The notes beneath the pieces are model-generated. The model worked only from the letters and a program-made list of their open reading frames with translations, made no database searches and was not told the origin of the DNA. This document shows positions 3,405-20,943 of a DNA stretch of 64,000 nucleotides, piece after piece. The translations under genes were made by a program, and so were the position numbers. Location of the stretch: positions 64,147-128,146 of the forward strand of contig CAVSXK010000024.1 of assembly GCA_963731925.1 (NCBI GenBank), read 5' to 3'. Within the stretch, counting starts at the first letter, position 1. Each line of letters starts with the position of its first letter. Source of the stretch: an uncultured Actinomycetes bacterium (GTDB taxonomy: Bacteria; Actinomycetota; UBA4738; HRBIN12).

Positions 3405-3496
3405 CAGGAAGCGGCGGCGGCGAACGTCGGGTGCCTCGGGGCGTCGGACGATCTGCGCGGCTTCGCGAGGTCGGGACCGGACGGCGGTGTCAACGG

Positions 3497-4420: not shown

Positions 4421-4508
4421 CGTGGCGCGACGGGCCGCCGGCCTCCTCTTGGGGAGGGGCCGGCGACCCGTCGACGAGGTCAGGGCCTGTGCGATCCCGC
4501 CTCCGTCC

Positions 4509-5855
4509 TCAGGACGCCGCCTCGATCTCGTCGTTGATCTGCTGTGCGACCGCCTGCAGTCCCGCCTGGAGATCGGCGACGTCTCCCGCCTGCCAGCGCT
4601 CCGCGAAGTCGCCGAGGAGGTTCTGATCGGTCGATCCGATGATGGACATGTCCTTGTAGTGGGACCCCGGGTTCCCGAAGATGTCGAGGAACGTCTGGAA
4701 CTGCTCGGGCAGGTCCAGCTCGGGAGACTCGAGCGAGGGCAGCGTGGTGGGGACGTTGCCGATCGCGTTCGCCGCCGCGACGAGCGAGTCCGTGTCGGTC
4801 GCCATGAACGACACGAGCAGCCACGCCTCTTCGGGGTGCGCCGACCCGCGGGGGATCCCGATGATCGTTCCACCGACGCGACCGATGCCGTACGTGTCCG
4901 CCTTCTCGTCCGGCACGGGGAACGGCGCCGTCGCGTAGTTCAGGCCTGGGGTCCCGTTCGCGATGAACGCGGTCCGCCACTCCCCGTCGATCGCCATCGC
5001 GATCCGGCCGTTCTGGAAGTCCTGGCTCGCCTCGCCCCACTCGTCGCCCTGTCCGGCGACGAACTTCCGCAGGTTGTCCGCGCCGTAGAAGTCGACGAGG
5101 TCCTTCTGCCACTGGAAGAGCTCGACCCAGTCGGGGTCCGTCCCGATCGCCGAGGTCCCGTCGTCGTTGTAGAAGTCCGCGCCGAAGGTGATCGCCAGTT
5201 CCGGCGGGGTCATCATGTAGTAGCCGAACCACGGGACGAACCCGGCGCGCTCGATCGAGCCGTCCGCGTTGAACACCGTCAGGTCCTTCGCCATCTGCGT
5301 GAGCTCGGACATGGTCTGCGGCGGCTCGGTGTAGCCCGCCTCCTCGAGGATGTCCGTGTTGTAGTACAGGCCGAGCGCGTCCGTGAGGAACGGGAACGCG
5401 CACTGCTTGCCGCCGAACCCCGTGTACCGGGCGACCGACGGCGGGAACACGCTCGCGTCGAAGTCTGTCGCCTCGGTGTACGGCGTGAGGTCCTGCCACG
5501 CGCCCGTGTCGCAGAACGCGGGGAGATCGTCCAGCGACCACGACATCACCGCGTCCGGAGGCGTCCCGGCGCGGATCGCGCTGATCACCTTCTGGTCGCT
5601 CGCGACGCCCTTCCGCACGTCGACCGTGATCCACGGGTACTCCTGCTCGAATCGATCGAAGACCTGCTGGACACCCGCGACCTCGTGGTCCGCGCTGAAC
5701 GGTATCCACATCTCGATCGTGACCGGCTCCTGCTCCTCGCCGGCCGCTCCGGTCTCACCGAGACCTTCGGGTACCTCGCTCTCACCGTCACCTGCCGTGC
5801 ATGCCGCGGCGATGAGTCCGAACACCGCCAGCACCACCAGCCATCGCTTCATCAT
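4509..5855 (-). CDS. ABC transporter substrate-binding lipoprotein (family 1 extracellular solute-binding, sugar-type)
   Basis: 448 aa with signal peptide plus lipobox (LIAAACTAG) and SBP_bac_1-like composition. SD GAGAGGGGG upstream. Forms an operon with the two permeases. Confidence 0.9.
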   Translation of the reverse strand: MMKRWLVVLAVFGLIAAACTAGDGESEVPEGLGETGAAGEEQEPVTIEMWIPFSADHEVAGVQQVFDRFEQEYPWITVDVRKGVASDQKVISAIRAGTPPDAVMSWSLDDLPAFCDTGAWQDLTPYTEATDFDASVFPPSVARYTGFGGKQCAFPFLTDALGLYYNTDILEEAGYTEPPQTMSELTQMAKDLTVFNADGSIERAGFVPWFGYYMMTPPELAITFGADFYNDDGTSAIGTDPDWVELFQWQKDLVDFYGADNLRKFVAGQGDEWGEASQDFQNGRIAMAIDGEWRTAFIANGTPGLNYATAPFPVPDEKADTYGIGRVGGTIIGIPRGSAHPEEAWLLVSFMATDTDSLVAAANAIGNVPTTLPSLESPELDLPEQFQTFLDIFGNPGSHYKDMSIIGSTDQNLLGDFAERWQAGDVADLQAGLQAVAQQINDEIEAAS

Positions 5856-5877
5856 GTTCGCGCCCCCTCTCGTCCGA

Positions 5878-7053
5878 TCAACGTCCTCTCACGTCCTCGC
5901 TCGAACCGCCACCCAACACGCTCATCGCGGAGCCACCCCCTTGCGTGCGCGTGAAGAGCAGATCCTGGGCCACCTGCAGCGCCATCCACACCGCTCCGAG
6001 GACGACGGCCTCCTCGCCGAGCGGCGAGATCTCCAGCCGCACCTTGAACGGCAAGATCGCCTTGAGTGCCTGCCTCACCGGCTCGAGGAGCAGGTCACCG
6101 TTCCGCCCGATCCCGCCGCCCAAGATCACCAGCTCGGGGTCGACGATCGGGACGATCGCTGCGATCGCGAGCGCGATCTGTTCGGCCTCCAGGGCGACGA
6201 CGCGTTGTGCGATGCGATCGCCGCGACGGGCGGCCGCGAACACGTTCCGCGGGGAGACCGGCGGCTTCATCCCGAGCTCTCGAGCGATGGCGACCACGCC
6301 CGACGCTCCGGCACGCGTGTCGAGGGCCCCGCGCTTGCGGAGCGATCGATCCTTCGGATCCCCGATCAGGGGGAGGTACCCGACCTCGCCGGCCGCTCCG
6401 GTCTCGCCCCGATACAGCTCGCCGCGCATGACGAGCCCGGCGCCGACACCCGTACCGACGTGCAGGTACACGAAGTTCGCGACGTCCTTGCCCAGGCCGA
6501 GCCACTGCTCCCCGAGCGCCGCAAGGTTCACGTCGTTCTCGATGCCGACCTTGGTTCCGAGCCCCTCCTGCACCGCCTGCACCAGACCCGTCCTGCCCCA
6601 TCCGGGCAGGGCGTGGGCGAGGGCGACGTGCCCCGTGACCGGATCGAAGACACCCGGGCTGCCGACCGTCGCGAAGGTCACCTGCTTCCAGCGCACGCCC
6701 GCCTCGGCGGCGAGCCCGTGAGCGATCTCGCCGATCTGGGAGATGAGCGTGCGCTGGCTCCGCACCCGTGCTCGCTCGTCCCGACGCGCGACGATGTCCC
6801 CGGAGAGGTTCGCGATGGCGGCACGCACGTAGTCGCGGCCGACGTCGAGGCCGACCACCCACCCCGCTCGAGGGTTCAACTCGTACAGGACCGCAGACGG
6901 TCCACGGCTCCCGCTCGACCGCCCCGCCTCCCGGACGAGGCCCGCGTCGACCAACGCGACGAGCGCCTGCGAGACCGTCGGCTTGGACAGGTCGCTGTCC
7001 CGAGCGATCTGGGCCCGGGAGACGGGCCCCATCTGCCGGACGAACTCGAGCAC
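5878..7053 (-). CDS. ROK-family transcriptional regulator (NagC/XylR-like repressor)
   Basis: N-terminal wHTH (SRAQIARDSDLSKPTVSQALVALVDAGLV). ROK sugar-kinase-like core with ATP/zinc motifs (GLDVGRDYVRAA, HVGTGVGAGLV, GETGAAGEVGYLP). Confidence 0.85.
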   Translation of the reverse strand: MLEFVRQMGPVSRAQIARDSDLSKPTVSQALVALVDAGLVREAGRSSGSRGPSAVLYELNPRAGWVVGLDVGRDYVRAAIANLSGDIVARRDERARVRSQRTLISQIGEIAHGLAAEAGVRWKQVTFATVGSPGVFDPVTGHVALAHALPGWGRTGLVQAVQEGLGTKVGIENDVNLAALGEQWLGLGKDVANFVYLHVGTGVGAGLVMRGELYRGETGAAGEVGYLPLIGDPKDRSLRKRGALDTRAGASGVVAIARELGMKPPVSPRNVFAAARRGDRIAQRVVALEAEQIALAIAAIVPIVDPELVILGGGIGRNGDLLLEPVRQALKAILPFKVRLEISPLGEEAVVLGAVWMALQVAQDLLFTRTQGGGSAMSVLGGGSSEDVRGR

Positions 7054-7164
7054 CGAACGCTCGTTGATCGCCTTCAGCAGGCTCGGCGTGCCGGCGGCGA
7101 ACGGGTGAACGGCCGTTTGGTGCGCCCCCTCTAGTTCGGTTCGCTCTCGTCTCGAGTAGCTCTA

Positions 7165-7184
7165 GTTCGGAAACTTTCCTAACT
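7165..7184. promoter_or_regulatory. operator-like palindrome GGAAACTTTCC (gttcGGAAACTTTCCtaact) in the ROK / eda-kdgK divergent intergenic region
   Basis: An AT-rich 11-bp inverted repeat in a 70% GC genome. A 15-nt block is identical (as reverse complement) to 11726-11740. Lies ~30 nt upstream of the eda start and ~115 nt upstream of the ROK start. Confidence 0.55.
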
Positions 7185-7210
7185 ATTCTCGCCGATGCTA
7201 CGCTCGACCC

Positions 7211-7855
7211 CTGAGCGCAGTCAAGGCACCCCGTCCGGACACCACGATCTTCGATACCCGCAGGGTTCTCGCGGTCGTACGGTTCCGAGATCCGTGCGAC
7301 CTCGACGCGATCGTCGAGGCGATACGTCGTGGCGGCATCGACCTCGTGGAGGTGACGGCGGACACGCCCGGCGCGATCGACGCGGTGCGACGAGCTGCAC
7401 GGGCCGGGGCCCCGGTGGGGGCGGGGACGATCGGCTCGGCGACGGAAGCGCGGGCGTTCGGCGAGGCGGGAGCCGCCTTCCTCGTGAGCCCCGGGGTGAT
7501 GCCGGAGGTCGTACGGGTCGCCGTCGAGCTGGGCATCCCTGCGGTGCCGGGGGCGCTCTCCCCGACCGAGATCGCGACGGCCCAAAGAGCCGGGGCAACC
7601 GCCGTGAAGCTCTTCCCGGCGAGCCTCGGCGGTCCCGGCTACCTGCGGGTCCTTCGAGGCCCGTTCTCCGACGTGCGTTTCGTCCCGACCGGAGGCATCG
7701 AGCCCGCCGACGTGAGGTCGTGGTTGGACGCGGGCGCCACGTGCGTCGGGCTTGGTTCCGCACTCGTCGGGGCCACCCCTCCCGCAACGCCCGGCGACCT
7801 CCGAGCGCTGACCGAGCGTGCACGTCGCGTCGTGCGGCTCGCGGGGCGGCGATGA
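7211..7855 (+). CDS. eda: 2-dehydro-3-deoxyphosphogluconate (KDPG) aldolase / KHG aldolase
   Basis: Track ORF 7346..7855 (GTG) is truncated. The same frame upstream reads ...TTIFDTRRVLAVVRFRDPCDLDAIVEAIRRGGIDLVEVTADTPGAIDAV..., aligning to the Eda N-terminus. The only in-frame candidate start is CTG 7211, so the start is uncertain or affected by an indel. Ends in an ATGA overlap with kdgK. Confidence 0.75.
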   Translation: MSAVKAPRPDTTIFDTRRVLAVVRFRDPCDLDAIVEAIRRGGIDLVEVTADTPGAIDAVRRAARAGAPVGAGTIGSATEARAFGEAGAAFLVSPGVMPEVVRVAVELGIPAVPGALSPTEIATAQRAGATAVKLFPASLGGPGYLRVLRGPFSDVRFVPTGGIEPADVRSWLDAGATCVGLGSALVGATPPATPGDLRALTERARRVVRLAGRR

Positions 7856-8760
7856 CGCCGGTTCCCGATGTCATCGCGCTGGGTGAGACCATGCTCTCGC
7901 TCATCGCCGTCGGGGTCCCGCTCGCCGAGGCATCCGAGCTCCGCGTGACGCACGGCGGTTCCGAGAGCAACACGTGCGTCGGGCTCGCTCGGTTGGGACT
8001 TCGGGCCGCGTGGGTGAGCCGTCTCGGTTCGGATCAAGCCGGGGATCGGATCGCTTCGGATCTCGGTCGCGAGGGCGTCGACCTCCGGTGGGTGCGCCGC
8101 GACCCAGAACGGCCCACCGGGCTGATGCTGCGCGGAACGTCGGGCGCGCCGGCCCGGTACGAGCGCGCCGGCTCCGCGGCGAGCGCGCTCTCCCCGAGCG
8201 ATCTCGACGGCGTTCCGGTGGAGGATGCCGGGGCCGTGATCACGAGCGGGATCACCGCCATGCTCGGTGCGGGTCCGCAGGAAACGGCGATCGCGCTGCT
8301 GGAACGCGCCCGCGGGCTCCGCGTGGTCGATCCGAACCTGCGTCTCGGCCTCTGGGGCTCGGACCGAGCCGGCGAGCTCGTCCGGCCCCTGCTCGAGCGC
8401 GCCGACCTCGTGCTCGGCGGGGAGGCCGAGCTCGCCGCGCTCGTCGGGGGCATCGGGCGCGAGCTCGCCGAGCGATGCCGCGACCTCGGACCGAGCGAGG
8501 TCGTCCTGAAGCTCGGCGCGGACGGGGCGGCGGCGTTCGACGAGGAGGGCAGGTGGTGCGAGGTGCGTCCGCCGCGGAGCGCCGAGGTCGACCCGGTCGG
8601 CGCCGGCGACGCGTTCGACGCCGGGTATCTCGCTGCCCGGCTGCGAGGGGCGTCGGTGGAGGACGCCCTCCGGCAGGGGGCGCGTTGCGGCGCCGGCGTG
8701 GCGGGGATGGTCGGAGACACCGCGGGCTTCCCCACGCTCGCCGAGATCGAAGGAGGGTGA
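7852..8760 (+). CDS. kdgK: PfkB-family sugar kinase, 2-dehydro-3-deoxygluconokinase-like
   Basis: MTPVPDVIALGETMLSL..., GSESNT, C-terminal DPVGAGDAFDAGYL (PfkB anion hole). Translationally coupled to eda (ATGA). Confidence 0.8.
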   Translation: MTPVPDVIALGETMLSLIAVGVPLAEASELRVTHGGSESNTCVGLARLGLRAAWVSRLGSDQAGDRIASDLGREGVDLRWVRRDPERPTGLMLRGTSGAPARYERAGSAASALSPSDLDGVPVEDAGAVITSGITAMLGAGPQETAIALLERARGLRVVDPNLRLGLWGSDRAGELVRPLLERADLVLGGEAELAALVGGIGRELAERCRDLGPSEVVLKLGADGAAAFDEEGRWCEVRPPRSAEVDPVGAGDAFDAGYLAARLRGASVEDALRQGARCGAGVAGMVGDTAGFPTLAEIEGG

Positions 8761-8762
8761 CG

Positions 8763-9158
8763 ATGACGAGAGACGCCCGGCAGCCCGAGGGCGTGGCCCG
8801 ACCGGCGCTTCCGTACAGCCCGGTCGTCGTGACCGGCGATCTGGTCTTCACCGCGGGACAGGTCGCACTCGATGCCCGGGGCGACCTGGTCGCCGGAGGG
8901 ATCGAAGCGCAGACCGCGCAGGTGCTCGACAACCTCGCGCGCTGTCTGGACGGCGTGGGCTGTTCGATGGAGGACGTCGTGAAGGTGACGGCGTTCCTGG
9001 CCGATCTCGCCGATGCCGACGGCTACAACCGTGTCTACGCGACACGGTTCGCCCCGCCCTACCCGGCTCGCTCGACGGTCGGAGCGCGGCTGGCCGACAA
9101 CCTGCTCGTCGAGATCGAGGCGATCGCGCGACGGGCCGGCGACGGAGCCAACCTCCTA
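8763..9158 (+). CDS. ridA: RidA/YjgF family reactive-intermediate (enamine/imine) deaminase; no in-frame stop
   Basis: MTRDARQPEGVARPALPYSPVVVTGDLVFTAGQVALDARGDLVAGGIEAQTAQVLDNL...LVEIEAIARRAG matches RidA over ~130 aa. The frame then reads through antisense of the convergent DSD1-like gene until 10448. The stop was presumably lost to an indel; the end coordinate is approximate. Confidence 0.65.
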
Positions 9159-10427
9159 GAAGAACGTCGCGATGGCGTCGACGACCCGGTCGCCGTCGTC
9201 CAGGACCGGGAGTACGCGCCAACGATCGAGCGCCGAGCAGGGGTGCGAGATCCCGCACATGAGGAGGTCGCCGACCCCCAGGGAGACGCCGCTCCCGACG
9301 CGGCAGTACGCGTGTTGGTCGTCGAGCGAGGTGATCTCGATCCGTCCGTCGATGCGCTCCACCTCTCCCCCGGCTCGTCGAACGAGGGTCGGCGTCGGAT
9401 ACCCCCGGTCGAACGGCACGTCGCGTCGTCCGAGACCCACCAGCGCGAGCCCTCGTTCGGGGGTGGAGAGCACGGCCCCCCAGGCTTCGAGCGTGGGATG
9501 GAAGCGGCGCTCGAGAGGCTCGTTCGCGAACGGCGAGGAGCGGGCGTCCGGGCCCGAGTCGTGGATCAGGTAGGAGCCGCAACGCAGGAGCACGGTCGAC
9601 GGCCCGGACCCGCCGCCGGCCAGCCGGTCGACGACGAGGTCGAAGAACAGGCTCCCCCCGGCCGTCACGATCGGCTCGCGCGCGAACGCACCCTCCTCGA
9701 GCAAGCGCATCGCCAAGCCACCAAGGTCGTCGAGGAACGCCTCCACCTGACCGAGGCTCGCCGGAGATCGATCGTGCGCGATCGTCCCTTCGTAGCCGGC
9801 GACCCCGGCGAGATCGAGCAGCTTCGAGCGTTCGACGGCGCGGGCCACCTCGATCGCCTCCGGCAGGCTCCGGCATCCCGTTCGACCCGCCCGGTGACCC
9901 AGCTCGACGAGGACCGAGAGAGGCCGATCCTCGCGGGAGTCGCGGACCCCCTCTTCGAGGAGGGCGACCCCACGGGTCGAATCGACCAGGCACACGAGCT
10001 CGGTCGTCTCCTCCGCGATGTCGGCGGCGGCCCACCGGAGCGACCCCGGGTCGGTGAGCTCGTTCGCGAGCAGCACTCGTCGCACCCCGGCCGCGCGCAG
10101 CACCCGCGCCTGTGTGGCCCCCGCGGCGCTCATCCCCCAGCCGCCCGCGTCGAGCTGCTTCCACCAGAGCTGGGGAGCCATGGTCGTCTTGGCGTGCGGC
10201 GCGATCGACACCCCATGCTGCCCGCAGTACCCGGCCATCAACCGGACGTTGTGCTCGAGCGCCGTCCGACGCAGCACGAGGACCGGTGGGACGAGGTCCG
10301 CGAACGTCCACCCCTGGTCCCCCGCCTCGAGCAACGGGACGGGCTCCGCGATCGTGGGGAATCCCTTGGTCGTGGACCCGACCCGGACCTCGGCCAGCAG
10401 CGCCTCGGCCCCGGCCGCGCTGGTCAT
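9156..10427 (-). CDS. DSD1-family PLP-dependent enzyme (alanine-racemase-fold N-domain plus D-serine-dehydratase-like C-domain); candidate amino-sugar-acid dehydratase
   Basis: 423 aa from ATG 10427 (MTSAAGAEALLAEV...). PLP-lysine region HAKTTMAP typical of the fold-type III DSD1 / D-threo-3-hydroxyaspartate dehydratase family. Start overlaps the GH4 stop (ATGA). Confidence 0.8.
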   Translation of the reverse strand: MTSAAGAEALLAEVRVGSTTKGFPTIAEPVPLLEAGDQGWTFADLVPPVLVLRRTALEHNVRLMAGYCGQHGVSIAPHAKTTMAPQLWWKQLDAGGWGMSAAGATQARVLRAAGVRRVLLANELTDPGSLRWAAADIAEETTELVCLVDSTRGVALLEEGVRDSREDRPLSVLVELGHRAGRTGCRSLPEAIEVARAVERSKLLDLAGVAGYEGTIAHDRSPASLGQVEAFLDDLGGLAMRLLEEGAFAREPIVTAGGSLFFDLVVDRLAGGGSGPSTVLLRCGSYLIHDSGPDARSSPFANEPLERRFHPTLEAWGAVLSTPERGLALVGLGRRDVPFDRGYPTPTLVRRAGGEVERIDGRIEITSLDDQHAYCRVGSGVSLGVGDLLMCGISHPCSALDRWRVLPVLDDGDRVVDAIATFF

Positions 10428-11692
10428 GAACGGAAGCGCGGCAGATGATCGCGGTTCGCGTCGAGGATCGCGGTGAGCAGGCCCGAGGCGGTCGGGTAGT
10501 CGGGCACGAGCGGGTTCGACAGCAGCGCCCTCAGCGCCAGCACGCGGTCGCCGCTCGTCGCCGCGCGGATCGTGAGCCGCTCGTACGCCTTGGCGTGCTG
10601 CACCAGCCCGAGCATCTCCTCCGAAAGCGGCGCGACCGGCAGGGGGTGAGCGCCTTCGGCATCGATCGTCGCTGCGACCTCGACGACGTCGTCGAGGGGG
10701 AGGTTGGGGATCGCGCCGGCGTTCCGGACGTTGACCACCTGCACGTCGCCGGTCCCGGCCGCGAGCGACGCAACGAGCTCCGCGGCGGCCTCGCTGTAGT
10801 AGGCGCCGCCGCGTCGCTCGAGGAGCTCGGGCTTCTCGGTCAGGTTGGGGTCCCGGTACATCTCGAGCAGCCGCGCCTCGATCTCCATGACCTCTTCGGC
10901 CCGCGTCCTCCCACGGCGTTGCTCCTCGACGATCTCTCGCGTCAGGTAGTAGTAGCGGAGGTAGTACGACGGGACGGCCCCGAGAGCCCGGATCAGCTCG
11001 GATGGCATGTCCGTCTCGCGCGAAAGCTCTGGGAGGTCGGTCTCGAGCAGCGCGGGGAGTCGGTCGACTCCGTCGACCATCACCGCACGCACCCACGAGA
11101 GGTGGTTGAGCCCGACGTGCTCGAGCTGCACCCGCTGCGGCTGCACGTCGAACCGGGTCGCGAACCGGCGCTGGAGGTTGATCGCGACGTTGCACAGACC
11201 GAGCGCCCGATGGCCCTCGTCGATCAGGGCCTGGGTGACCATGCCCGTCGGGTTCGTGAAGTCGACGAACCATGCCCCGGGCGCGCCGCGGCGAGCCGTG
11301 AGCTCCGCGAGCTCGAGCACGACGGGGATCGTCCGAAGCGCTTTGGCGAACCCACCCGGGCCGGTCGTCTCCTGCCCCACGCACCCGAACCGGGGCGGGA
11401 TCGTCTCGTCGGACAGGCGCGCGGCCTGACCGCCGACCCGAAGCTGGACGATCACGAAGCCCGCGCCCTCGAGGGCTTCGTCGCGATCGGTGGTGAGGAT
11501 CAGGTGACCCCCGTACCCGGCACGGTCGAGCATCCGGCCCGCGAGCCCACCGACGACGTCGAGCCGATCCCTGTCCACGTCGAGCAGGGCCAGCTCGTCG
11601 ACGGGGAAGCGCTCGATGCGGCGGACGAAGCCCTCCACGAGCTCGGGGGTGTAGGTGCTCCCGGCCCCGACCACGGCTACCTTCACACCCAT
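10424..11692 (-). CDS. glycoside hydrolase family 4 (NAD+/Mn2+-dependent 6-phospho-glucosidase / alpha-glycosidase)
   Basis: 422 aa from ATG 11692: MGVKVAVVGAGSTYTPELV (Rossmann NAD site), GH4 signature region ...CNVAINLQRRF..., and a typical C-terminal domain. Confidence 0.85.
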   Translation of the reverse strand: MGVKVAVVGAGSTYTPELVEGFVRRIERFPVDELALLDVDRDRLDVVGGLAGRMLDRAGYGGHLILTTDRDEALEGAGFVIVQLRVGGQAARLSDETIPPRFGCVGQETTGPGGFAKALRTIPVVLELAELTARRGAPGAWFVDFTNPTGMVTQALIDEGHRALGLCNVAINLQRRFATRFDVQPQRVQLEHVGLNHLSWVRAVMVDGVDRLPALLETDLPELSRETDMPSELIRALGAVPSYYLRYYYLTREIVEEQRRGRTRAEEVMEIEARLLEMYRDPNLTEKPELLERRGGAYYSEAAAELVASLAAGTGDVQVVNVRNAGAIPNLPLDDVVEVAATIDAEGAHPLPVAPLSEEMLGLVQHAKAYERLTIRAATSGDRVLALRALLSNPLVPDYPTASGLLTAILDANRDHLPRFRS

Positions 11693-11717
11693 CGCCGGGC
11701 ATCGTACACTCACGCCG

Positions 11718-12791
11718 ATGAATTGGTTAGGAAAGTTTCCTGACCCATTCCTGGCCGAGATCGCCGGGCAGGCAGAGGCGATTCGCCGCGCCGCGGGCTC
11801 ACTCGAGGAGCAGGTCCCCACCCTCGACGCGCTGGGCGAAGCGGCGGGGCGAGGTGGCGGCGTCGTGTTCACCGGCATGGGCAGCTCGTACGACGCGTGC
11901 TACCCGGCGGTGAACGAGCTGGCCGCTCGAGGCGTGCCGGCGCTCCACGTCGACGCGGCCGAGCTCCTGCATTTCCGGACCAACGCGCTGTCGTCGGACA
12001 CCGTGCTCGTCGTGGTGAGCCAATCGGGCGAGAGCGCCGAGATCGTGCACCTCGCCGCATCGCTGAATGCCCGCCCGGACCCGCCGCTGATGACGTCGCT
12101 CACGAACGGGCTCGCGAACGAGCTCGCGGAGCGGGCCGACCTTCGACTCGACACCCGCGCGGGCCCGGAGACCGGCCCGTCGACCATGACGTTCGCGGCC
12201 TCGATGGCGCTCCTCGCGGCGGTGGCGCCGATCCTCGGCGGGGACACGACCGCCGATGCCACCGCGCGCGCTCGAACGGGGGCGGAGCGGGCGGCCGGCG
12301 CGGTCGAGGCGTTCATGGAGGTGGGCGACGCCACGGGCTCGTTGCTCGAGGACGTCGTCGACGGGCGCGAGATCCTGGCGGTGCTCGGCCGAGGCTCGGC
12401 GCGGGCGGCCGCCGAGATGGGGGCGCTGACGTTGAAAGAGAGCGGGGTGATGGCCGAGTCGTTCGCGACGGCGAGCTTCCGCCACGGACCGTTCGAGCTC
12501 GCGGGGCCGGACATGGCGGCGATCATCCTGTCGACCGAGGAGCAGACCCGAACGCTGGATCTCGGCCTCGCGGCGGATCTGGCGAGCACGGGCGCATCCG
12601 TCGCCGTGATCGCGCCCGGCGAGGAGGTTCCCGCCGGTTGTGCCCGGATCCACCTCCCCGGCCTCGACCGCCTGTTCTCTTCGACGGTCGGGGTCGTGCC
12701 GCTCCAGTTGCTCGCGTGGCGGCTCGCGCTGCGCCACGGCCGCGCCCCCGGCGTCTACACACGCGCGTCGAAGGTGACCACACGTGAGTGA
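11718..12791 (+). CDS. double SIS-domain sugar-phosphate isomerase/deaminase (GlmS-isomerase-domain-like; GlmD/NagB-II/AgaS/FrlB family)
   Basis: 357 aa starting MNWLGKFPDPFLAEIAGQ.... SIS motifs VFTGMGSSYDA and VVVSQSGESAE. C-terminal second SIS domain (RHGPFEL). The paralog at 15626 has the same N-terminal register. Confidence 0.85.
   Translation: MNWLGKFPDPFLAEIAGQAEAIRRAAGSLEEQVPTLDALGEAAGRGGGVVFTGMGSSYDACYPAVNELAARGVPALHVDAAELLHFRTNALSSDTVLVVVSQSGESAEIVHLAASLNARPDPPLMTSLTNGLANELAERADLRLDTRAGPETGPSTMTFAASMALLAAVAPILGGDTTADATARARTGAERAAGAVEAFMEVGDATGSLLEDVVDGREILAVLGRGSARAAAEMGALTLKESGVMAESFATASFRHGPFELAGPDMAAIILSTEEQTRTLDLGLAADLASTGASVAVIAPGEEVPAGCARIHLPGLDRLFSSTVGVVPLQLLAWRLALRHGRAPGVYTRASKVTTRE
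11726..11744. promoter_or_regulatory. second copy of the GGAAAGTTTCC operator-like palindrome (gttaGGAAAGTTTCCtgac)
   Basis: Reverse complement shares 15/15 nt with 7169-7183. Lies 34-52 nt upstream of the GH4 start on the opposite strand. Overlaps codons 3-9 of the SIS gene, which use unusually AT-rich codons (tta gga aag ttt cct). Confidence 0.55.
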
Positions 12792-13398
12792 ACGGCTACG
12801 GACGGCGCTCACGTTCGACGCGGAGCACCCGGACCGGCCGAACGCCTCCGCGGGAGCCGCCGAACGGATCCTGGACGTCCTCGAGGATGCGGGGGCCCGT
12901 GCGACGTTCTTCCTCCAGTCGCGGTGGGCGATGGCGAACCCCGAACTCGCTCGTCGGATCGCAGACGCCGGCCACCTGGTCGGCAACCACTCGACCTACC
13001 ATGCCCGCATGACGCTGTTCTCCGACGACGGCATCCGGGTCGACGTGCGACAGGCCGGCGACACCATCGCCGAGCTGGCGGGCGTCGACCCGCGCCCCTG
13101 GTTCCGGTGCCCGTTCGGAGACGGCCACGACGATCGCCGCGTGCTCGACGTCCTCGAGGAGCTCGGGTATCGGAACGTGCACTGGCACGTGGAGTCCGAG
13201 GACTGGGAACCGTGGAGGACGCCGGCGGAGATCGGCCGAGCGAGCGTGGAGGGCGCGATCGCGCACGGCGACGGTGCCGTCGTCCTGCTCCACACGTGGC
13301 CCCGAGCGACGGCTGCGGCCCTGCCGATCGCGCTCGAGGGGTTGGAGCGCGCGATGGCCTCGCTGGTCACGATCGACGAGCTCGAGGAGCTGCCGTGA
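12784..13398 (+). CDS. polysaccharide deacetylase (NodB homology domain, carbohydrate esterase family 4)
   Basis: CE4 motifs: TFDAEHPD, ATFFLQSRWA (resembles the TFFL... motif), LVGNHSTYHARM (His-His metal site), RCPFGDGHD. GTG start overlaps the SIS stop. Confidence 0.8.
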   Translation: MSERLRTALTFDAEHPDRPNASAGAAERILDVLEDAGARATFFLQSRWAMANPELARRIADAGHLVGNHSTYHARMTLFSDDGIRVDVRQAGDTIAELAGVDPRPWFRCPFGDGHDDRRVLDVLEELGYRNVHWHVESEDWEPWRTPAEIGRASVEGAIAHGDGAVVLLHTWPRATAAALPIALEGLERAMASLVTIDELEELP

Positions 13399-14414
13399 GC
13401 CGGCCCGCGGTGCTCGCGATCGACGGCGGAGGATCGAAGATCGACGCGGTCCTGATCGATCGGGACGGAGCGATCGCCGGGAGCGCTCGCGTGGAGCCTT
13501 CGGACACCGACGGCCAACGGGCGGGCGACCTCGCGGCGATCGGGCTGGCGGTCAAGGCGGCATGCCGTGACGCGCGGATCGACACCGACGAACTGCCCGT
13601 CGCGCGCCTCGGCGTGTTCTGTCTCGCCGGCGCGGATCTTCCCGCCGACGACCGAAGGATCCTCCGTTCGCTCGAGCCGCACCGGTGGACCACCGACACG
13701 ATCCTTCGCAACGACACGTTCGCGGTGCTCCGTGCCGGAACCAACCGGACCTGGGGGGTGGGGGTGGTCTGCGGGTTCGGGACCAACTGCTCGGCGGTGG
13801 CTCCCGACGGTCGGACGTATCGCTTCCCCGCCCTGGGATGGATCGCCGGCGACTGGGGTGGCGGTGCCGACATCGGAGAGGCCGCGATCTGGCACGCCGT
13901 GCGATCCGAGGACGGCCGAGGCGAGCGGACGTCCCTGGCGAGCGCCGTGCCCGCCCACTTCGATCTCCGCCGGCCGAGACAGGTCATGGAGGCGATGTAC
14001 TTCGGCCGTTTGAGCGTGAGCCGGATCGCCGAGCTCCCTCCGTTGGTGTTCGAGGCGGCGGCGGACGGCGACGCCGTCGCCCGATCGATCGTCGATCGCC
14101 AGGCGGACGAGGTCGTGTCGATGGCGACGGCCGCGATCCGACGCCTGCGGATGACGGAGCTCGACGTCCACGTGGTCCTGGGCGGCGGCATCTTCCGCAA
14201 CACGTTCGTACCGTTCCTCGAGCGGGTCGACGACGGGATCCATCGCTCGGCCCCGGCGGCCAGCGTGACCGTCCTCGGTGCACCACCGGTGGTGGGCGCG
14301 GCCCTGCTCGGACTCGACCGCCTGCGCGCGTCCCGCACCGCGAAGGACCGCCTGCGGACCACCTTGACCAAGGATCCGGTCGGCAACAGACTCGATGGCA
14401 AGCGGCGGAGGTAG
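13395..14414 (+). CDS. BadF/BadG/BcrA/BcrD-type ATPase, N-acetylglucosamine-kinase-like sugar kinase
   Basis: N-terminal AIDGGGSKIDAVL (actin-fold phosphate-1 loop). VVCGFGTNCSA. C-terminal VLGGGIF. GTGA overlap with the deacetylase stop. Confidence 0.8.
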   Translation: MSRPAVLAIDGGGSKIDAVLIDRDGAIAGSARVEPSDTDGQRAGDLAAIGLAVKAACRDARIDTDELPVARLGVFCLAGADLPADDRRILRSLEPHRWTTDTILRNDTFAVLRAGTNRTWGVGVVCGFGTNCSAVAPDGRTYRFPALGWIAGDWGGGADIGEAAIWHAVRSEDGRGERTSLASAVPAHFDLRRPRQVMEAMYFGRLSVSRIAELPPLVFEAAADGDAVARSIVDRQADEVVSMATAAIRRLRMTELDVHVVLGGGIFRNTFVPFLERVDDGIHRSAPAASVTVLGAPPVVGAALLGLDRLRASRTAKDRLRTTLTKDPVGNRLDGKRRR

Positions 14415-14416
14415 AG

Positions 14417-15607
14417 ATGGCGCGGATCGTCCTCGATGGTGTGACGAAGGTCTTCGGGACCGACGTGGTGGCGGTCGACGACGTGTCGCTCGAGATCGCC
14501 GACGGCGAGTTCATGGTCCTCGTCGGTCCATCGGGCTGCGGGAAGTCCACGATCCTTCGCATCCTCGCCGGACTCGAGGAGGTGACGGCCGGCGAGGTGT
14601 ACATCGGCGAGAGGCAGGTCACGGACCTCCCACCGAAGGCGCGGGACATCGCGATGGTGTTCCAGAACTACGCGCTCTACCCACACATGACCGTCGAGCA
14701 GAACCTCGGGTTCGGTCTCAAGCTCCGCAGGATGCCGAAGGACGAACGAGGCCACCGGGTGCACGACGTCGCGAAGATCCTCGGTCTCGACGGACTGATG
14801 GAGCGCAAGCCGGGTGAGCTGTCCGGCGGCCAGCGTCAGCGCGTGGCGATGGGTCGAGCGATGGTTCGAGAGCCGGTCGCGTTCCTGATGGACGAACCAC
14901 TGTCGAACCTCGACGCGAAGCTCAGGGTCCAGATGCGCGGGCAGTTCGCCAAGCTTCACGATCGCCTGCGCACGACGACGGTGTACGTGACGCACGATCA
15001 GGTCGAAGCGATGACGCTCGGACAGCGCGTGGCGGTCCTGCGCGACGGCATGCTGCAGCAGGTCGACACGCCGCAGCGTCTGTATCAGTACCCGGCGAAC
15101 CTGTTCGTCGCAGCCTTCATCGGATCGCCGCCGATGAACCTCGTGGGTGCCGAGGTTCGGGGAGGCGCGGTCCGCTTCGCGGGCTTCGAGATCCCTTTGC
15201 CGGCCGACCGGGCCCCGGACGGCCTCGAGGGTCGCGAGCTGATCCTCGGGATACGGCCATCGGATCTGGAGGACACGGCCGTGTGGACGGGACAGGACCT
15301 GCCCACGATCACCGTCCTCGCGGACGTCACCGAGGACCTCGGCTCCGAGGTGAACGTGCTGTTCACGGTGGACGCACCGCCCGTAGAGACCGACGAGACG
15401 CTCGCCGCGACCGAGCAGGACGAAGGCGAGATCCCTCTCCTCGCCGAGGAGCACCGCGCCGTCTTCTGCGCGCGGGTGGACCCCCGGACCTCGTGCGGGC
15501 CCGGGACGCCGATCCGCCTCTCGGTCGACCCACGCCGGTTCCACTTCTTCGATCCCGAGACGGGGCAGGCGCTCACGACCGAGCCCGCCGCGGTAGCCAG
15601 CGCCTGA
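14417..15607 (+). CDS. msiK: sugar ABC transporter ATP-binding protein (MalK/UgpC/MsiK family)
   Basis: Walker A GPSGCGKST, signature LSGGQRQRVA, Walker B FLMDEPLSNLD, H-loop VTHDQ. C-terminal TOBE/MalK regulatory domain. GGAGG SD 7 nt upstream of ATG. Confidence 0.9.
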   Translation: MARIVLDGVTKVFGTDVVAVDDVSLEIADGEFMVLVGPSGCGKSTILRILAGLEEVTAGEVYIGERQVTDLPPKARDIAMVFQNYALYPHMTVEQNLGFGLKLRRMPKDERGHRVHDVAKILGLDGLMERKPGELSGGQRQRVAMGRAMVREPVAFLMDEPLSNLDAKLRVQMRGQFAKLHDRLRTTTVYVTHDQVEAMTLGQRVAVLRDGMLQQVDTPQRLYQYPANLFVAAFIGSPPMNLVGAEVRGGAVRFAGFEIPLPADRAPDGLEGRELILGIRPSDLEDTAVWTGQDLPTITVLADVTEDLGSEVNVLFTVDAPPVETDETLAATEQDEGEIPLLAEEHRAVFCARVDPRTSCGPGTPIRLSVDPRRFHFFDPETGQALTTEPAAVASA

Positions 15608-15625
15608 GGCCGTAGACTCGGGCGC

Positions 15626-16700
15626 ATGAGATCGCTCGAAGGCTTCTCCGACCGCTTCCTCGGCGAGATCGCGGGCCAGCCCGACGCGATGCGACGAGCC
15701 GCGGCGGCCCTCGTCGACCAGCGCGAGGCGCTCGACCGGATCCGCGAAGCCAGCGCGGCCTCGCGCACCATCGTCTTCACCGGCATGGGGGGCTCGTACG
15801 ACGCCTGCTACCCGGCGGTGAACGACCTCGCGGCGCGGGGCGTCCCCGCATTGTTGGTAGATGCCGCGGAGGTCCTGCACTTCCGAAGGCCGATCCTGAA
15901 CGCGCAGACGCTCGCCGTCGTCGTCAGCCAGTCCGGCGAGAGCGCCGAGATCGTGCGCCTGGTGAACGAGCTCGCCAAGCAACGCACGCGGCCGTTCGTG
16001 GTCGCGATCACGAACGGCACCAACAACGACCTGAGCCGGCGGGCTGACATCGAGCTCGACACGTGGGCGGGACCGGAGTCCGGGCCCTCGTCGATGACCT
16101 TCGCGGCCTCGATGACCACGCTCTCCGGTCTGGCCCGGCTCCTCGCCGGCGACAGCGTCGACACCGCGGTCGATCGAACCCGGACGGCGGCGGAGGGAGC
16201 CGCGCGCTCGGCCGAACGGCTCCTCGACGACCCCGAGGCGTTCGCGACCGATCTCGAGGCGTGGCACGGGGGTCGGGACGTGATCGTGCTTGCTCGGTCG
16301 CGGGCCGGCGCGGGCGGCGACCGAGCTCGGAGCGCTCGTCCTGAAGGAATCCGGCGTGATGGCCGAGTCGCTGGAATCCGGTCTGTTCCGTCACGGCCCG
16401 TTCGAGCTCGCCGGCCCGAACATGAGCGCGATCGTCATGGCGACCGAGCCGGAGACCCGGCGGCTCGACCTCGGGCTCGCGGCCGACCTCGTCGACGCGG
16501 GGAGCGCCGTCATGGTGGTCACGCCCGACGGCGAGGCGCCGAAGGGAGCGCGGCCCGTCGCGACGGGCTATCTGGACCGAGCGCTGATGTCGGCGGTCGC
16601 GGTGATCCCCACGCAGCTCCTCGCCTGGCGGCTCGCGGGCGCGCGGGGACGCACGCCCGGCGCGTACACCAGAGCGTCGAAGGTCACGACCCGCGAATAG
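15626..16700 (+). CDS. double SIS-domain isomerase/deaminase paralog; frameshifted near 16293
   Basis: N-terminal ~220 aa in frame of 15626 (MRSLEGFSDRFLGEIAGQ..VFTGMGGSYDA..VVVSQSGESAE). C-terminal ~135 aa in frame of 16290 (LGRGPARAATELGALVLKESGVMAES...RASKVTTRE), co-linear with the 11718 paralog. A single indel lies at ...VIVL|ARS. Confidence 0.7.
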
Positions 16701-17825
16701 CTAGGCTCCCGCGTCCGCCGACGCCGCCTGGTCGACCGGGAGCCATGCGCTCACCGAGGTCCCGTGCCCGAGCTCGCTCTCGACCCGGCAACGACCTCCG
16801 GCGAGCTGTGCGCGCTCGATCATCGTCGGAAGGCCGATGTGTCCGGGCTCGGGCGAACCGATCACGCCGACGTCGAAACCGCGCCCGTCGTCGCTGACCG
16901 TCAACCGCACACCGCCGTCGACGTCGGCGATCGAGACGTCGATCCGCGTCGCGGACGCGTGCTTGCGCGCGTTCGCGATCGCCTCCTGCGCGATCCGGAA
17001 CAGCACCGCTCGCATCTCGGAGGACGGCTCGAACGACAGCAGGTCCTCGATCTCGGGTACCGGATCCGCCGTTCCCGCGTAGGCGCGGAGCGCGGGGACG
17101 AGACCCTCCCGTTCGAGCGCCGTTGGCCGGAGCTCGAACAGCAGGTGCCGCAGACGCTCGACCGATGCGCGGATCGACTCTCGGAGGTCGTCGGCTTCCT
17201 CGCGGAGCTCGGGATCCTCGATCCGGCGCGCGATCGCCTGCGCACGGATGTCGGCCGCACTCATGACCTGGATCGGGTCGTCGTGGATGTCGGAGGCGAT
17301 CCGCCGGCGCTCCTCCTCCTGCGCATCCTCGAGGCGGAGGACCAGCTCGCGGCGGTCCTCCATCGTTCGACGGAGCACGTCGAGGCTCCGTCGGAGACGG
17401 TCCTGGACGCGCTTGGTCGGCGTGATGTCCGTCATGATGCCGCGCCAGAAGAGGGGTTCGCCCTGCTCGTCGCGGACCAGGACGGCCTCGTCCCGGATCC
17501 ACACCTCTCGGCCGTCGGCCGCCTGCAGCCGGTACTCGGTCGTGAACGGGCCACCCGTGCGTCGGGACTCGCGGTGCTCGCGCAGGACGCGGTCACGGTC
17601 GTGCTCGTGGACGCGATCGGCCCACAGGTCCGGCTCGTCGCGCCACTGCTCGATCGTGAAGCCGAGCAGCGGCTCGACCTGCGGGCTGGTGTAGATGTTC
17701 GTCGAGCCCTCGTCGTTGGCGTCGACGTACAGCACGGCGGGGATGCCCTCCACCAGATGGCGGTAGGTCTCGTGCGCCTCGCGGAGATGGTCGGCGAACC
17801 CGGGCCGGACGCGGACCTCGCTCAC
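16701..17825 (-). CDS. PAS-domain sensor histidine kinase (HisKA_3 + HATPase_c), cytoplasmic
   Basis: PAS region (EWIRDEAVLVRDEQGEPLFWRGIMTDITP). HisKA_3 H-box (RRRIASDIHDDPIQ). ATPase G-box (DDGRGFD, GHIGL). No TM segments and no adjacent response regulator. Confidence 0.85.
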   Translation of the reverse strand: MSEVRVRPGFADHLREAHETYRHLVEGIPAVLYVDANDEGSTNIYTSPQVEPLLGFTIEQWRDEPDLWADRVHEHDRDRVLREHRESRRTGGPFTTEYRLQAADGREVWIRDEAVLVRDEQGEPLFWRGIMTDITPTKRVQDRLRRSLDVLRRTMEDRRELVLRLEDAQEEERRRIASDIHDDPIQVMSAADIRAQAIARRIEDPELREEADDLRESIRASVERLRHLLFELRPTALEREGLVPALRAYAGTADPVPEIEDLLSFEPSSEMRAVLFRIAQEAIANARKHASATRIDVSIADVDGGVRLTVSDDGRGFDVGVIGSPEPGHIGLPTMIERAQLAGGRCRVESELGHGTSVSAWLPVDQAASADAGA

Positions 17826-20306: not shown

Positions 20307-20943
20307 TCAGCCGACGTGGTCCGTGAACCACGCGGCCGCGAGCTCGGCAACACGATCCAACCCACCGGGCTCCTCGAACAGGTGGGTGGCTCCGGGGACG
20401 ATCTCGAGCCGCGTCTCGCACCGCATCCGAGCCTGAGCGGCTCGGTTCAACCCCAGGACCTGACGGTCCAGGCCTCCGACGACGAACAGGGTCGGAGCCG
20501 TGACACGTTCGAGCGCCTCCCCCGCCAGATCCGGCCGGCCACCGCGGGAGACGATCGCCGTGATGTCCGGTGTGCGCGGCCGCGACGACGAGGGCCGCGG
20601 CGGCGCCGGTGCTCGCGCCGAACAGATCCACCGGCAACCCGTCGAGCTCCGACCGGCCCCGGACCCATCCGACCGCCGCACCGAGCCGCCGGGCGAGCAG
20701 CTCGATGTCGAAAGCCTTCCGTCGCTCCTCGGCCTCCGCGTCGGTCAACAGATCGAACAGCAGCGTTCCGAGACCTTCGCGATGCAGCCGGTCGGCGACG
20801 CGCACGTTCCGCGGAGAGCGCCGGCTCGAACCGCTGCCGTGGGCGAACACCACGACGGCGATCGCCTGCCCGGGGATCGTCAGATCGCCGGGCAGGGCTA
20901 CCCCGTCGGACTCGACGGTCACGGATCGAGAACGGGCATCCAC
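20307..20943 (-). CDS. dienelactone hydrolase family protein; frameshifted near 20630
   Basis: N-terminal half in frame of 20245..20943 (AVVVFAHGSGSS...DLFGASTGAAAAL). C-terminal half in frame of 20307..20681 (ITAIVSRGGRPDLAGEALERVTAPTLFVVGGLDRQV...IVPGATHLFEE). Confidence 0.65.

Follow-up and report, generated by a model that had tools for sequence, protein, structure and literature searches.

Five genes at positions 11718–16700 of a 64,000-nucleotide (nt) stretch of contig CAVSXK010000024.1, hereafter referred to as the window, are on balance probably the enzyme operon of a CsnR-type chitosan/chito-oligosaccharide locus in an uncultured soil actinobacterium, as judged from sequence comparison. 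They make up half of a 14-kb locus that most likely lets its host import and break down chitosan fragments under repressor control. The locus was assigned to the CsnR system because operator and gene content match together. It is an extended version of a regulon known from Streptomyces, built from known folds, and not a fundamentally new system.

The window has a G+C content of about 70%. The five genes are co-directional on the forward strand, and their Pfam assignments are all far over the respective cut-offs. They encode a protein with sugar isomerase (SIS) domains, SIS1 (11718–12791, 357 amino acids (aa), Pfam SIS); a CE4/NodB deacetylase (12784–13398, 204 aa, Polysacc_deac_1, 88 bits); a BadF/BcrAD-type kinase (13395–14414, 339 aa, BcrAD_BadFG, 97.9 bits); an MsiK/UgpC-type ATP-binding cassette (ABC) ATPase (14417–15607, 396 aa, ABC_tran and OB_MalK) that scores 443 bits against the NCBIfam UgpC subfamily cut-off of 432; and a further SIS protein, SIS2 (15626–16700, 357 aa after frame correction, Pfam SIS). 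Genes called independently on L081, a metagenome contig 98% identical to the window, have the same five-gene boundaries. The gene content is as listed in the first-pass annotation of this region. That annotation had all the genes coupled by overlapping starts and stops, which holds for two of the four junctions (SIS1/CE4 by 8 nt, CE4/kinase by 4 nt, GTGA) and not for the other two, where kinase and msiK are separated by a 2-nt gap and msiK and SIS2 by an 18-nt gap. Its coordinates also omit the glycosidase, regulator and transporter that define the system.

These genes lie upstream of SIS1 on the opposite strand. A glycosidase of family GH4 in the CsnH position, homologous to ChbF, occupies 10424–11692 (Pfam Glyco_hydro_4 and Glyco_hydro_4C) and is transcribed divergently from SIS1, the two start codons being 25 nt apart. 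Further away, four co-directional minus-strand genes spanning 2598–7053 encode a ROK-family repressor with an N-terminal helix-turn-helix (HTH) domain (5878–7053, Pfam ROK, E 3e-45, and HTH models), a solute-binding lipoprotein in the CsnE-like position (4509–5855, SBP_bac_1 and SBP_bac_8, E ~1e-35) and two ABC permeases in the CsnF-like and CsnG-like positions (3497–4420, BPD_transp_1, E 8e-13, synteny conserved; 2598–3404, BPD_transp_1, E 5e-18, kept in related loci). The binding protein begins with MMKRWLVVLAVFGLIAAAC, which contains a lipobox (LIAAAC). The repressor is presumed to be the counterpart of CsnR; its gene was called at 391 aa on L081, in agreement with the window, and has a CsnR box upstream. 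The MsiK-type ATPase presumably energizes the transporter at 2598–5855. A scan of species-representative genomes yielded 78 related loci, all from metagenome-assembled genomes (MAGs) of uncultured soil Actinomycetota, a few of them labelled Solirubrobacterales or Gaiellales. More than 50 of the 78 have GH4 on the minus strand divergent from SIS, CE4, kinase and MsiK on the plus strand, and the block of ROK, binding protein and permeases usually lies a few kb from that core.

The window was searched for AGGAAANTTTCCT with up to two mismatches. Exactly two matches to the CsnR box (AGGAAAnTTTCCT) were obtained in 64 kb against 0.25 expected by chance, both at regulatory positions. Box 1 (CGGAAACTTTCCT, 7168–7180) lies in the divergent intergenic region between ROK and eda, while box 2 (AGGAAAGTTTCCT, 11729–11741), a perfect match, lies between GH4 and the body of SIS1. 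Together with its flanks box 1 reads CTAGTTCGGAAACTTTCCTAACTAT, with two differences over 25 positions relative to the csnN106 operator CTAGTTAGGAAACTTTCCTAACTCT that is carried by synthetic csnN106 promoter oligonucleotides (PMC3048496). The csnN106 palindrome was shifted by crude extract of wild-type S. lividans and not by that of a csnR deletion mutant (PMC3048496). In 36 of the related loci a box flanks the ROK gene, and in 51 a box is centred 17 nt downstream of the SIS start codon.

Box 2 falls inside codons 4–8 of SIS1 (LGKFP; L-G-K/N-F-P in the family) and 37–49 nt upstream of the GH4 start codon. The sole sigma-70-like match within 11500–17000 is a promoter-like site, TTCACA-17 nt-TACACT, at 11682–11710 on the plus strand. 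Its −35 hexamer overlaps the first GH4 codons on the other strand and its −10 hexamer stops 7 nt short of the SIS1 ATG, a position that implies a leaderless SIS1 mRNA if the site is the promoter. With a leaderless mRNA the operator would come to lie at +12 to +24 of the transcript and at the same time encode SIS residues 4–8. Across 53 aligned loci the spacing of this site is conserved and its motifs are nearly invariant. The nearly invariant block comprises ACCTTCACACCCAT, which contains both the −35 hexamer and the opposite-strand GH4 codons MGVKV, continues with GCATCGTACACT and the start codon, and then reads GTTAGGAAA[C/G]TTTCCTGAC. For GH4 itself, inspection of the minus strand gave a TACGAT candidate for a −10 element and no convincing −35 hexamer at standard spacing.

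The Streptomyces genes csnREFGHK (Dubeau et al. 2011; Viens et al. 2015; summarized in PMC6097792, PMC5635096 and bioRxiv 10.1101/2023.09.20.558697) encode the ROK repressor CsnR, the ABC transporter CsnEFG that is energized by MsiK, the GH4 enzyme CsnH and CsnK, a putative saccharide kinase. The target of CsnR is a palindromic box, and its binding there is relieved most strongly by the glucosamine (GlcN) dimer, (GlcN)2 (PMC6097792). The locus in the window shares with this regulon a ROK-led operon of binding protein and two permeases, the presence of a GH4 enzyme and of a sugar kinase, here of BadF type, an MsiK-type ATPase and the palindromic operator, which is placed downstream of the promoter at regulator and target genes. 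Unlike in Streptomyces, the enzyme genes form a separate, divergent operon, msiK is inside the locus and the operator stands within coding sequence, as would follow from a leaderless transcript. In addition loci of this type carry SIS proteins resembling the GlmS isomerase, one or two in number, as well as a cytoplasmic CE4 protein and a variable module, here eda-kdgK-ridA and an OngC-like enzyme.

The GH4 protein was placed in the 6-phospho-beta-glucosidase subfamily (ChbF/CelF, BglT), as both Pfam domains are present (159.6 and 186.8 bits) and its closest relatives are phospho-beta members. Its best matches in the PDB were the Geobacillus entries 1S6Y and 5C3M (338–346 bits, E 1e-100, roughly 50% identity), deposited as (putative) 6-phospho-beta-glucosidases, followed by the Thermotoga maritima 6-phospho-beta-glucosidase BglT (1UP6, 267 bits, E 2e-78); non-phospho alpha-glucosidases of the AglA type gave only 48–57 bits (E 1e-12). 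Over its full length it is 37% identical to E. coli ChbF, a monoacetylchitobiose-6-phosphate hydrolase, and the N-terminal GAGS motif, the Cys of GLCN and the His of GLNH are conserved in 48 orthologs. The substrate suggested by these similarities is a 6-phosphorylated beta-glycoside.

The kinase scored 97.9 bits against PF01869 (cut-off 31.5) and 76.7 against the NagK_SO3507 model (cut-off 370). Its best PDB match was the N-acetylmuramic acid (MurNAc)/N-acetylglucosamine (GlcNAc) kinase MurK (8ZO3, 68.8 bits), and it also matched a Sulfolobus hexokinase; we predict a 6-kinase acting on GlcN or GlcN oligosaccharides. In a cultured actinomycete, Nonomuraea gerenzanensis (L086, NZ_LT559118.1, 8767–12230), a ROK-HTH protein, GH4 (57% identical) and a BadF kinase are encoded side by side, with the 43%-identical kinase homolog directly after the GH4 gene, an arrangement that supports a functional pairing of the two predicted enzymes. 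Transporter, SIS and CE4 genes are absent from the vicinity of this triad, as is a CsnR box. The accession concerned is an 11.85-Mb chromosome that is filed as a plasmid in PLSDB.

The CE4 protein matched PF01522 with 88.2 bits (cut-off 23.1), and its AF2 model (pLDDT 94) superposed with TM scores of 0.79–0.85 on SlCE4, PdaC, PgdA and related CE4 structures. It carries no signal peptide and is taken to be cytoplasmic. Motif 1 (12811–12840, residues 10–19) reads LTFDAEHPDRP in place of the canonical TFDDG and is invariant in 21–52 orthologs. The invariant positions include D12, the catalytic Asp, A13, E14, H15, H69 and H73 (HSxxH), R108 (RxPF) and H170 (LxH).

The two SIS proteins belong to a separate family resembling the isomerase domain of GlmS and, by their model scores, are not orthologs of GlmD or NagB-II. 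The GlmS isomerase half was their best curated match (110–114 bits). Against the full GlmS model TIGR01135 they align only to positions 250–600, at 110 bits against a cut-off of 418, and they have no N-terminal Ntn glutaminase domain. The GlmD equivalog (NCBIfam NF041128, cut-off 580) gave 29.2 bits for SIS1 and 32.1 for SIS2, so that the earlier label of GlmD-like does not, strictly taken, fit proteins scoring 110–114 bits against the GlmS isomerase half. The NagB-II equivalog from Shewanella SO3506 (NCBIfam NF046059, cut-off 430) gave 53.9 and 47.9 bits, respectively, and the AgaS model 37–43 bits, far below its cut-off. The SIS proteins align with GlmS of E. coli at 28% identity (E 6e-20) and, locally, with FrlB at 22% (E 3e-4). 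The AF2 model of SIS1 (pLDDT 87.7) superposes on GlmS/GFAT isomerase domains (7DNR, 1MOQ and related entries) with a TM score of 0.82.

Mapping of the GlmS active site placed S303 at SIS S57; S347, Q348, S349 and T352 at S101, Q102, S103 and S106 in the phosphate loop SQSGES (pattern S-Q-S-G-E-[ST]); the catalytic E488 at E241; the ring-opening H504 at H256; and the Schiff-base K603 at K352. The C-terminal Glu of GlmS is kept in both copies. All retained residues are the same in the two paralogs and invariant in a 15-sequence family alignment. Shared with GlmS are the two-SIS fold, the phosphate loop, the catalytic Glu/His pair and a C-terminal tail that holds the Schiff-base Lys and finishes in Glu; the glutaminase domain is missing, the overall identity is low and the genomic context is catabolic, unlike that of GlmS. 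The chemistry to be expected from these residues is aldose/ketose isomerization with loss of the amine on a hexosamine-6-phosphate. Because the operon is catabolic, the expected direction is from glucosamine-6-phosphate (GlcN-6-P) to fructose-6-phosphate and ammonia, and SIS1 is predicted to be a CsnR-regulated GlcN-6-P deaminase/isomerase. A stand-alone double-SIS protein replaces classical NagB in three known systems, namely Shewanella NagB-II, Thermococcus GlmD and the NagB of the Thermotoga ChiR operon. In Shewanella (SO3506/SO3507) NagB-II is paired, as here, with a BadF-type kinase, NagK, and the Thermotoga operon has, as here, a ROK regulator and an ABC transporter. The proteins of the locus nevertheless differ from NagB-II, GlmD and NagK, scoring 48–54 of 430, 29–32 of 580 and 77 of 370, with the SIS proteins nearer to GlmS than to either deaminase. 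Stand-alone relatives of the SIS proteins form 229 clusters at the 50%-identity level (E ≤ 1e-30) and are usually annotated as GlmS. Among ten sampled, more distant representatives none reached a curated equivalog cut-off, that of NagB-II included, or was informatively named, and a search of a plasmid collection with SIS1 gave no match.

SIS1 and corrected SIS2 align without gaps at 57% identity (204/357), compared with the roughly 45% given before. Position 56, equivalent to GlmS T302, is Ser in SIS1 and Gly in SIS2; it is the sole mapped difference and varies among homologs. The SIS1 and SIS2 clades show 11 fixed differences, all of them outside the mapped active-site positions. A neighbour-joining tree of 84 SIS sequences resolved single-copy SIS genes that bear the box, a long-branched, box-bearing SIS1 clade confined to two-SIS genomes, and a tight SIS2 clade that lacks the box and is nested next to one of the single-copy groups. 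The majority of the related loci carry just one SIS gene, and each of the two copies can be missing. In L049 (1433–1578) and L050 (3110–3260) SIS1 is deleted and its first ~17 codons, with the operator, remain before CE4. In L011, L018 and L019 a box-bearing SIS gene adjoins the histidine-kinase gene without CE4, kinase and MsiK, the pattern expected if recombination between the two SIS genes had deleted those in between.

The clear difference between the two copies is regulatory. SIS2 has its own −10-like element (GGCCGTAGACTCG, 15606–15618, plus strand) that ends 7 nt before its ATG, and GCCGTA[G/C]ACTC or a close variant stands 7 nt before the start of nearly all of the 32 distal SIS2 genes examined, whatever is upstream. 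No CsnR box was found in any of these 32 genes. At the position of the operator SIS2 of the window reads TCGCTCGAAGGCTTCTCCGAC, a decayed version, and in distal SIS2 proteins the peptide has drifted to SLEGFSD and similar; the constraint on these codons in SIS1 therefore acts on DNA and not on protein. A search for a glmS ribozyme or another riboswitch gave no Rfam matches in the window, which also holds no tRNAs. The reading best supported by these comparisons is that SIS1 and SIS2 are regulatory paralogs of the same chemistry that have sub-functionalized, SIS1 being repressed by CsnR and SIS2 independent of it. The duplication had earlier been taken to indicate two different phosphorylated amino-sugar substrates, a view at odds with active sites that match at all mapped positions but one, with the absence of clade-fixed differences there and with the dispensability of either copy. 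Nor is it a simple tandem duplication, as SIS2 has its own promoter element and occurs alone, without the cluster, in relatives.

The second SIS copy is indeed frameshifted in the assembly, as had been stated before, by one extra base at ~16289. The gene is split between two frames at ~16289–16290, and removal of one base restores 357 aa. The window reads GTGCTTGCTC (GTG-C-TTG-CTC), whereas L081 has GTG-TTGCTC at the same site and seven relatives of ~86–87% DNA identity have GTGC-TGCTC. We hold it likely that this lesion is an assembly or sequencing error and favour that over a very recent mutation. The alternative of a genuine, very recent inactivation, tolerated through redundancy with SIS1, is the doubtful one of the two, even if the inserted base lies outside a long homopolymer (GTG[C]TTG) and redundancy is attested by one-SIS loci and by the loss of SIS1 in L049 and L050. 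It is opposed by the intact frame in the independent contig L081, which is 98.2% identical to the window and differs from it by three 1-nt indels in 11.3 kb, each a single C, one of which breaks PfkB in L081 instead. The codons after the shift also show no relaxed constraint, with 45 synonymous and 6 non-synonymous changes relative to L046 and no differences from L081, as under purifying selection. Further against it, the window holds a second frame-split gene (20307–20943), and similar splits affect SIS1 and CE4 in a related long-read MAG, L077.

The remaining two indels of L081 and the second split gene can be described more closely. At L081 position 3100 (window 8369) a 1-nt deletion of its own cuts PfkB to 218 aa, and at 3878 (window 9148) a 1-nt difference alters the C-terminus of RidA. 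The gene at 20307–20943 (minus strand) encodes an alpha/beta-hydrolase of the dienelactone-hydrolase type that is split between frames at ~20570–20605, within 4 kb of the SIS2 shift; the same hydrolase is one open reading frame of 245 aa in L008 and L022.

Under the favoured reading, catabolism would proceed as follows. Extracellular chitosanases would yield (GlcN)2–3 together with partly acetylated oligomers, and these would be imported by the lipoprotein-dependent ABC system with the MsiK encoded in the locus. The CE4 enzyme would then strip the remaining N-acetyl groups, a step that matters because GH4 chemistry runs through C2/C3 of the glycone; ChbF needs a deacetylated glycone. The kinase would phosphorylate O6 of the non-reducing GlcN, and also free GlcN, upon which GH4, which would need NAD+ and Mn2+, would release GlcN-6-P for conversion to fructose-6-phosphate and ammonia by the SIS enzymes. 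Without (GlcN)2 the repressor would occupy box 2, which would fall at +12 to +24 of a leaderless SIS1 mRNA and is also upstream of GH4 on the other strand. One repressor bound there could block both divergent units and so shut both operons. The scheme uses every conserved core gene once and has no step without a gene, which is an argument from parsimony. It shares with ChbG/ChbF of E. coli the de-N-acetylation of a 6-phosphorylated chito-disaccharide followed by GH4 cleavage. Unlike the chb system, it would rely on an ABC transporter and a soluble kinase instead of a phosphotransferase system, its deacetylase has the CE4 fold and not the YdjC family fold of ChbG, and its regulator is a ROK protein, not the AraC-type ChbR.

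Several observations weigh against this scheme. The metal-binding Asp of CE4 motif 1 is replaced by Ala, followed by Glu-His, and the CE4 pseudoenzyme BA3943 of B. anthracis is among the best structural matches; on account of both, deacetylase activity is plausible and not assured. None of the curated deaminase thresholds is even nearly reached by the SIS proteins, and K485 of GlmS is not conserved in them, with T or V at position 238. The binding protein showed no informative similarity to characterized chito-oligosaccharide binding proteins, and the plasmid collection gave no informative match to it. Whether phosphorylation precedes or follows glycoside cleavage was inferred from the GH4 subfamily similarity alone. 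The match to the Streptomyces csn proteins is one of operator and gene content, not of sequence comparison with SCO2657–2662. In Streptomyces CsnH and CsnK are themselves only presumed to be hydrolase and kinase, and CsnK is called a ROK-family kinase there, the kinase in the window being of BadF type (bioRxiv 10.1101/2023.09.20.558697).

Three other functions were weighed for the locus. It could serve the use of N,N'-diacetylchitobiose from chitin in a Chb-like manner, by import and phosphorylation, with CE4, as an analog of ChbG, taking off one acetyl group and with GH4 cleavage to GlcN-6-P and GlcNAc. Such a role would agree with a GH4 homologous to ChbF, with a deacetylase in the conserved core, which would be pointless for fully deacetylated chitosan, and with the Thermotoga ChiR operon, a ROK-regulated chitobiose ABC system with an SIS-type NagB. 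We consider it unlikely, however, as the GlcNAc released would have to be processed by NagK and NagA, and neither is present in cluster or window. In the work of Dubeau et al. from 2011 GlcNAc is moreover said to have had no effect on CsnR binding. The operator is a CsnR box, and (GlcN)2 is the ligand that relieves CsnR binding most strongly, while genes for chitin and chitosan use are separately regulated in actinomycetes, by DasR and CsnR (PMC6097792).

The first-pass annotation had likened the deacetylase, kinase and SIS proteins to the archaeal Dac/GlmA/GlmD chitin route, with the two SIS paralogs for two phosphorylated amino sugars. Such a route would work on unphosphorylated sugars, in the order deacetylase, exo-glucosaminidase, GlcN kinase and GlmD. 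Part of this stands, since the route does appear to deacetylate first, to centre on GlcN and to do without NagA and classical NagB, neither of which was found in the 64-kb window; the logic of deacetylation followed by GlcN-6-P deamination through an SIS enzyme is common to both. The nearest systems are, however, the bacterial CsnR and Chb systems and not the archaeal one. The SIS proteins miss the GlmD cut-off by a wide margin, the glycosidase is a phospho-beta-glucosidase-type GH4 and not GlmA-like, and regulator and operator are those of the actinobacterial CsnR system. A division of substrates could be argued from the age of the SIS clades, which are old and only 57% identical, but the copies share their active-site positions except for position 56 (S or G), with 0 of 11 clade-fixed differences falling there, and single-SIS loci predominate, SIS1 being deleted in L049 and L050. 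This explanation as a whole is distinctly improbable. Less probable still, to the point of being scarcely credible, is that the SIS proteins are FrlB-like deglycases in a locus for Amadori/fructosamine compounds. The frl operon of B. subtilis encodes a deglycase, an ABC transporter, a PfkB kinase and an MsiK-like ATPase. The locus does contain double-SIS proteins, a PfkB kinase, RidA and an MsiK-type ATPase, and FrlB shares the Glu and His pair. Its similarity to the SIS proteins is marginal all the same (22% over a local alignment at E 3e-4, where GlmS gives E 6e-20), it lacks their GlmS-type C-terminal tail with the Lys, the PfkB protein is nearest to 2-keto-3-deoxygluconate (KDG) kinases and its gene overlaps eda in a separate operon, and GH4, CE4 and the CsnR boxes would be left unexplained. 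Recycling of MurNAc through a MurQ-like step was also considered, prompted by MurK being the best PDB match of the kinase, and was rejected: the SIS proteins are double-SIS and GlmS-like, not MurQ-like, and the operator is that of CsnR.

A side module between the repressor and GH4 genes probably catabolizes D-glucosaminate, by analogy with a known pathway. Behind box 1 lie genes on the plus strand for Eda, the aldolase for 2-keto-3-deoxy-6-phosphogluconate (KDPG) and KHG (7181–7855, TIGR01182, 160.9 bits, cut-off 156.05), a PfkB kinase (7852–8760, Pfam PfkB, E 1e-44; best NCBIfam models KDG/KDGal kinases, all below cut-off) and an enamine/imine deaminase of the RidA family (8757–9155, Ribonuc_L-PSP, E 1.5e-31; NCBIfam Rid family 93 bits, under the 106.25-bit cut-off). 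PfkB overlaps eda at an ATGA junction, and the three genes form an operon separate from that of SIS1. A pyridoxal phosphate (PLP) enzyme of fold type III, similar to D-serine dehydratase, is encoded on the minus strand downstream of GH4 (9156–10427, Ala_racemase_N and D-ser_dehydrat), its gene overlapping the GH4 stop codon. In the ong pathway of Pseudoalteromonas D-glucosaminate (GlcN1A) from oxidized chitin is converted to KDG and then to KDG-6-phosphate (PMC9537276). With that system (OngB, OngC, OngD, KdgK; PMC9537276) the module shares, at the level of enzyme class, a fold-type III PLP enzyme and RidA together with a kinase nearest to KDG kinases, here with Eda in addition. This would match a route from GlcN1A through KDG and KDPG to pyruvate and glyceraldehyde-3-phosphate, OngC being compared by enzyme class. 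The PLP enzyme is a candidate D-glucosaminate deaminase in an OngC-like role, being of the same enzyme class as OngC in its description, and C1-oxidized oligomer ends are a possible source of D-glucosaminate. Unlike ong, the locus lacks a GH20 enzyme and a TonB-dependent or SSS transporter, its control would be through a CsnR box instead of OngR, and no OngB-type amidohydrolase (D-aminoacylase) was found in it. Only some of the related loci have the module. In L015 (6540–8666), L056, L025 and L040 the slot between ROK and GH4 holds a DegT/DnrJ-type PLP aminotransferase instead of eda-kdgK-ridA and the PLP enzyme, in some cases accompanied by an SDR oxidoreductase or by another, distant GH4 (36–39% identical). 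These genes, too, stand behind the CsnR box and promoter-like sequence, and they may represent an alternative, transaminative fate of an amino sugar. In the window the Eda frame has no ATG, GTG or TTG upstream of the conserved first strand VLAVVRF (7181–7260), and the GTG start of its relatives is missing; the start may be non-canonical, its codon may have been lost or the sequence may be in error.

The 13-kb csn block (2598–15607) is polymorphic for presence and absence between a metallophosphoesterase gene and SIS2, since these flanking genes directly adjoin in several close relatives. In L046 (8926–10001), L016 (8918–10001) and others SIS2 directly follows the Metallophos gene and the csn cluster is absent from that site; the ortholog of this gene in the window is at 1559–2608 (77% aa identity). 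Compared with L003/L043, which come from one MAG, the permeases, the binding protein and SIS2 of the window are 94–99% identical at the protein level, and the central genes only 58–79% (PfkB 70, RidA 67, PLP 58, GH4 79, SIS1 62, CE4 74, kinase 72). Such mosaic divergence suggests recombination or replacement of the central enzyme segment.

Downstream, a gene for a PAS-HisKA_3 histidine kinase (16701–17825, minus strand) is convergent to the end of the operon and follows SIS2 or MsiK in many related loci. No response regulator adjoins it, the next gene having an adenosine-specific-kinase domain, and its proximity may reflect conserved synteny only. Elsewhere in the window, 27597–28820 and 52100–53269 encode a pair of paralogous sigma factors of the ECF type, both of which have a DUF6596 domain at the C-terminus.

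Taken jointly, the parts of the locus could amount to an undescribed, self-contained cytoplasmic "phospho-chitosan" pathway in uncultured soil Actinomycetota, a proposal that we advance only tentatively. In it the BadF-type kinase may phosphorylate GlcN oligomers, GH4 may be a 6-phospho-beta-glucosaminidase, and a new GlmS-isomerase-like family that is widely mis-annotated as GlmS may replace NagB as the GlcN-6-P deaminase. The OngC-like/RidA/KdgK/Eda branch may, under CsnR control, send C1-oxidized reducing ends derived from lytic polysaccharide monooxygenases (LPMOs) to the Entner-Doudoroff pathway. The SIS function may have been split into a copy with the operator in its own codons 4–8 and a constitutive copy without an operator.

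The GlcN metabolic pathway in streptomycetes has been described as "largely unknown" (bioRxiv 10.1101/2023.09.20.558697), and the type of locus described here offers a candidate enzyme for each step from the imported oligomer to fructose-6-phosphate. It also suggests what the many stand-alone SIS proteins of this large family, which abound in soil metagenomes and are mislabelled as GlmS by annotation pipelines, are likely to do. Chitin and chitosan are major pools of carbon and nitrogen in soil. The side module connects the CsnR regulon with what may be a route for oxidized, LPMO-derived products outside the marine Gammaproteobacteria. Finally, SIS1 would illustrate how, in nature, an operator can be written into the opening codons of a leaderless gene, and its paralog shows what becomes of the peptide once the constraint on the DNA is lifted.

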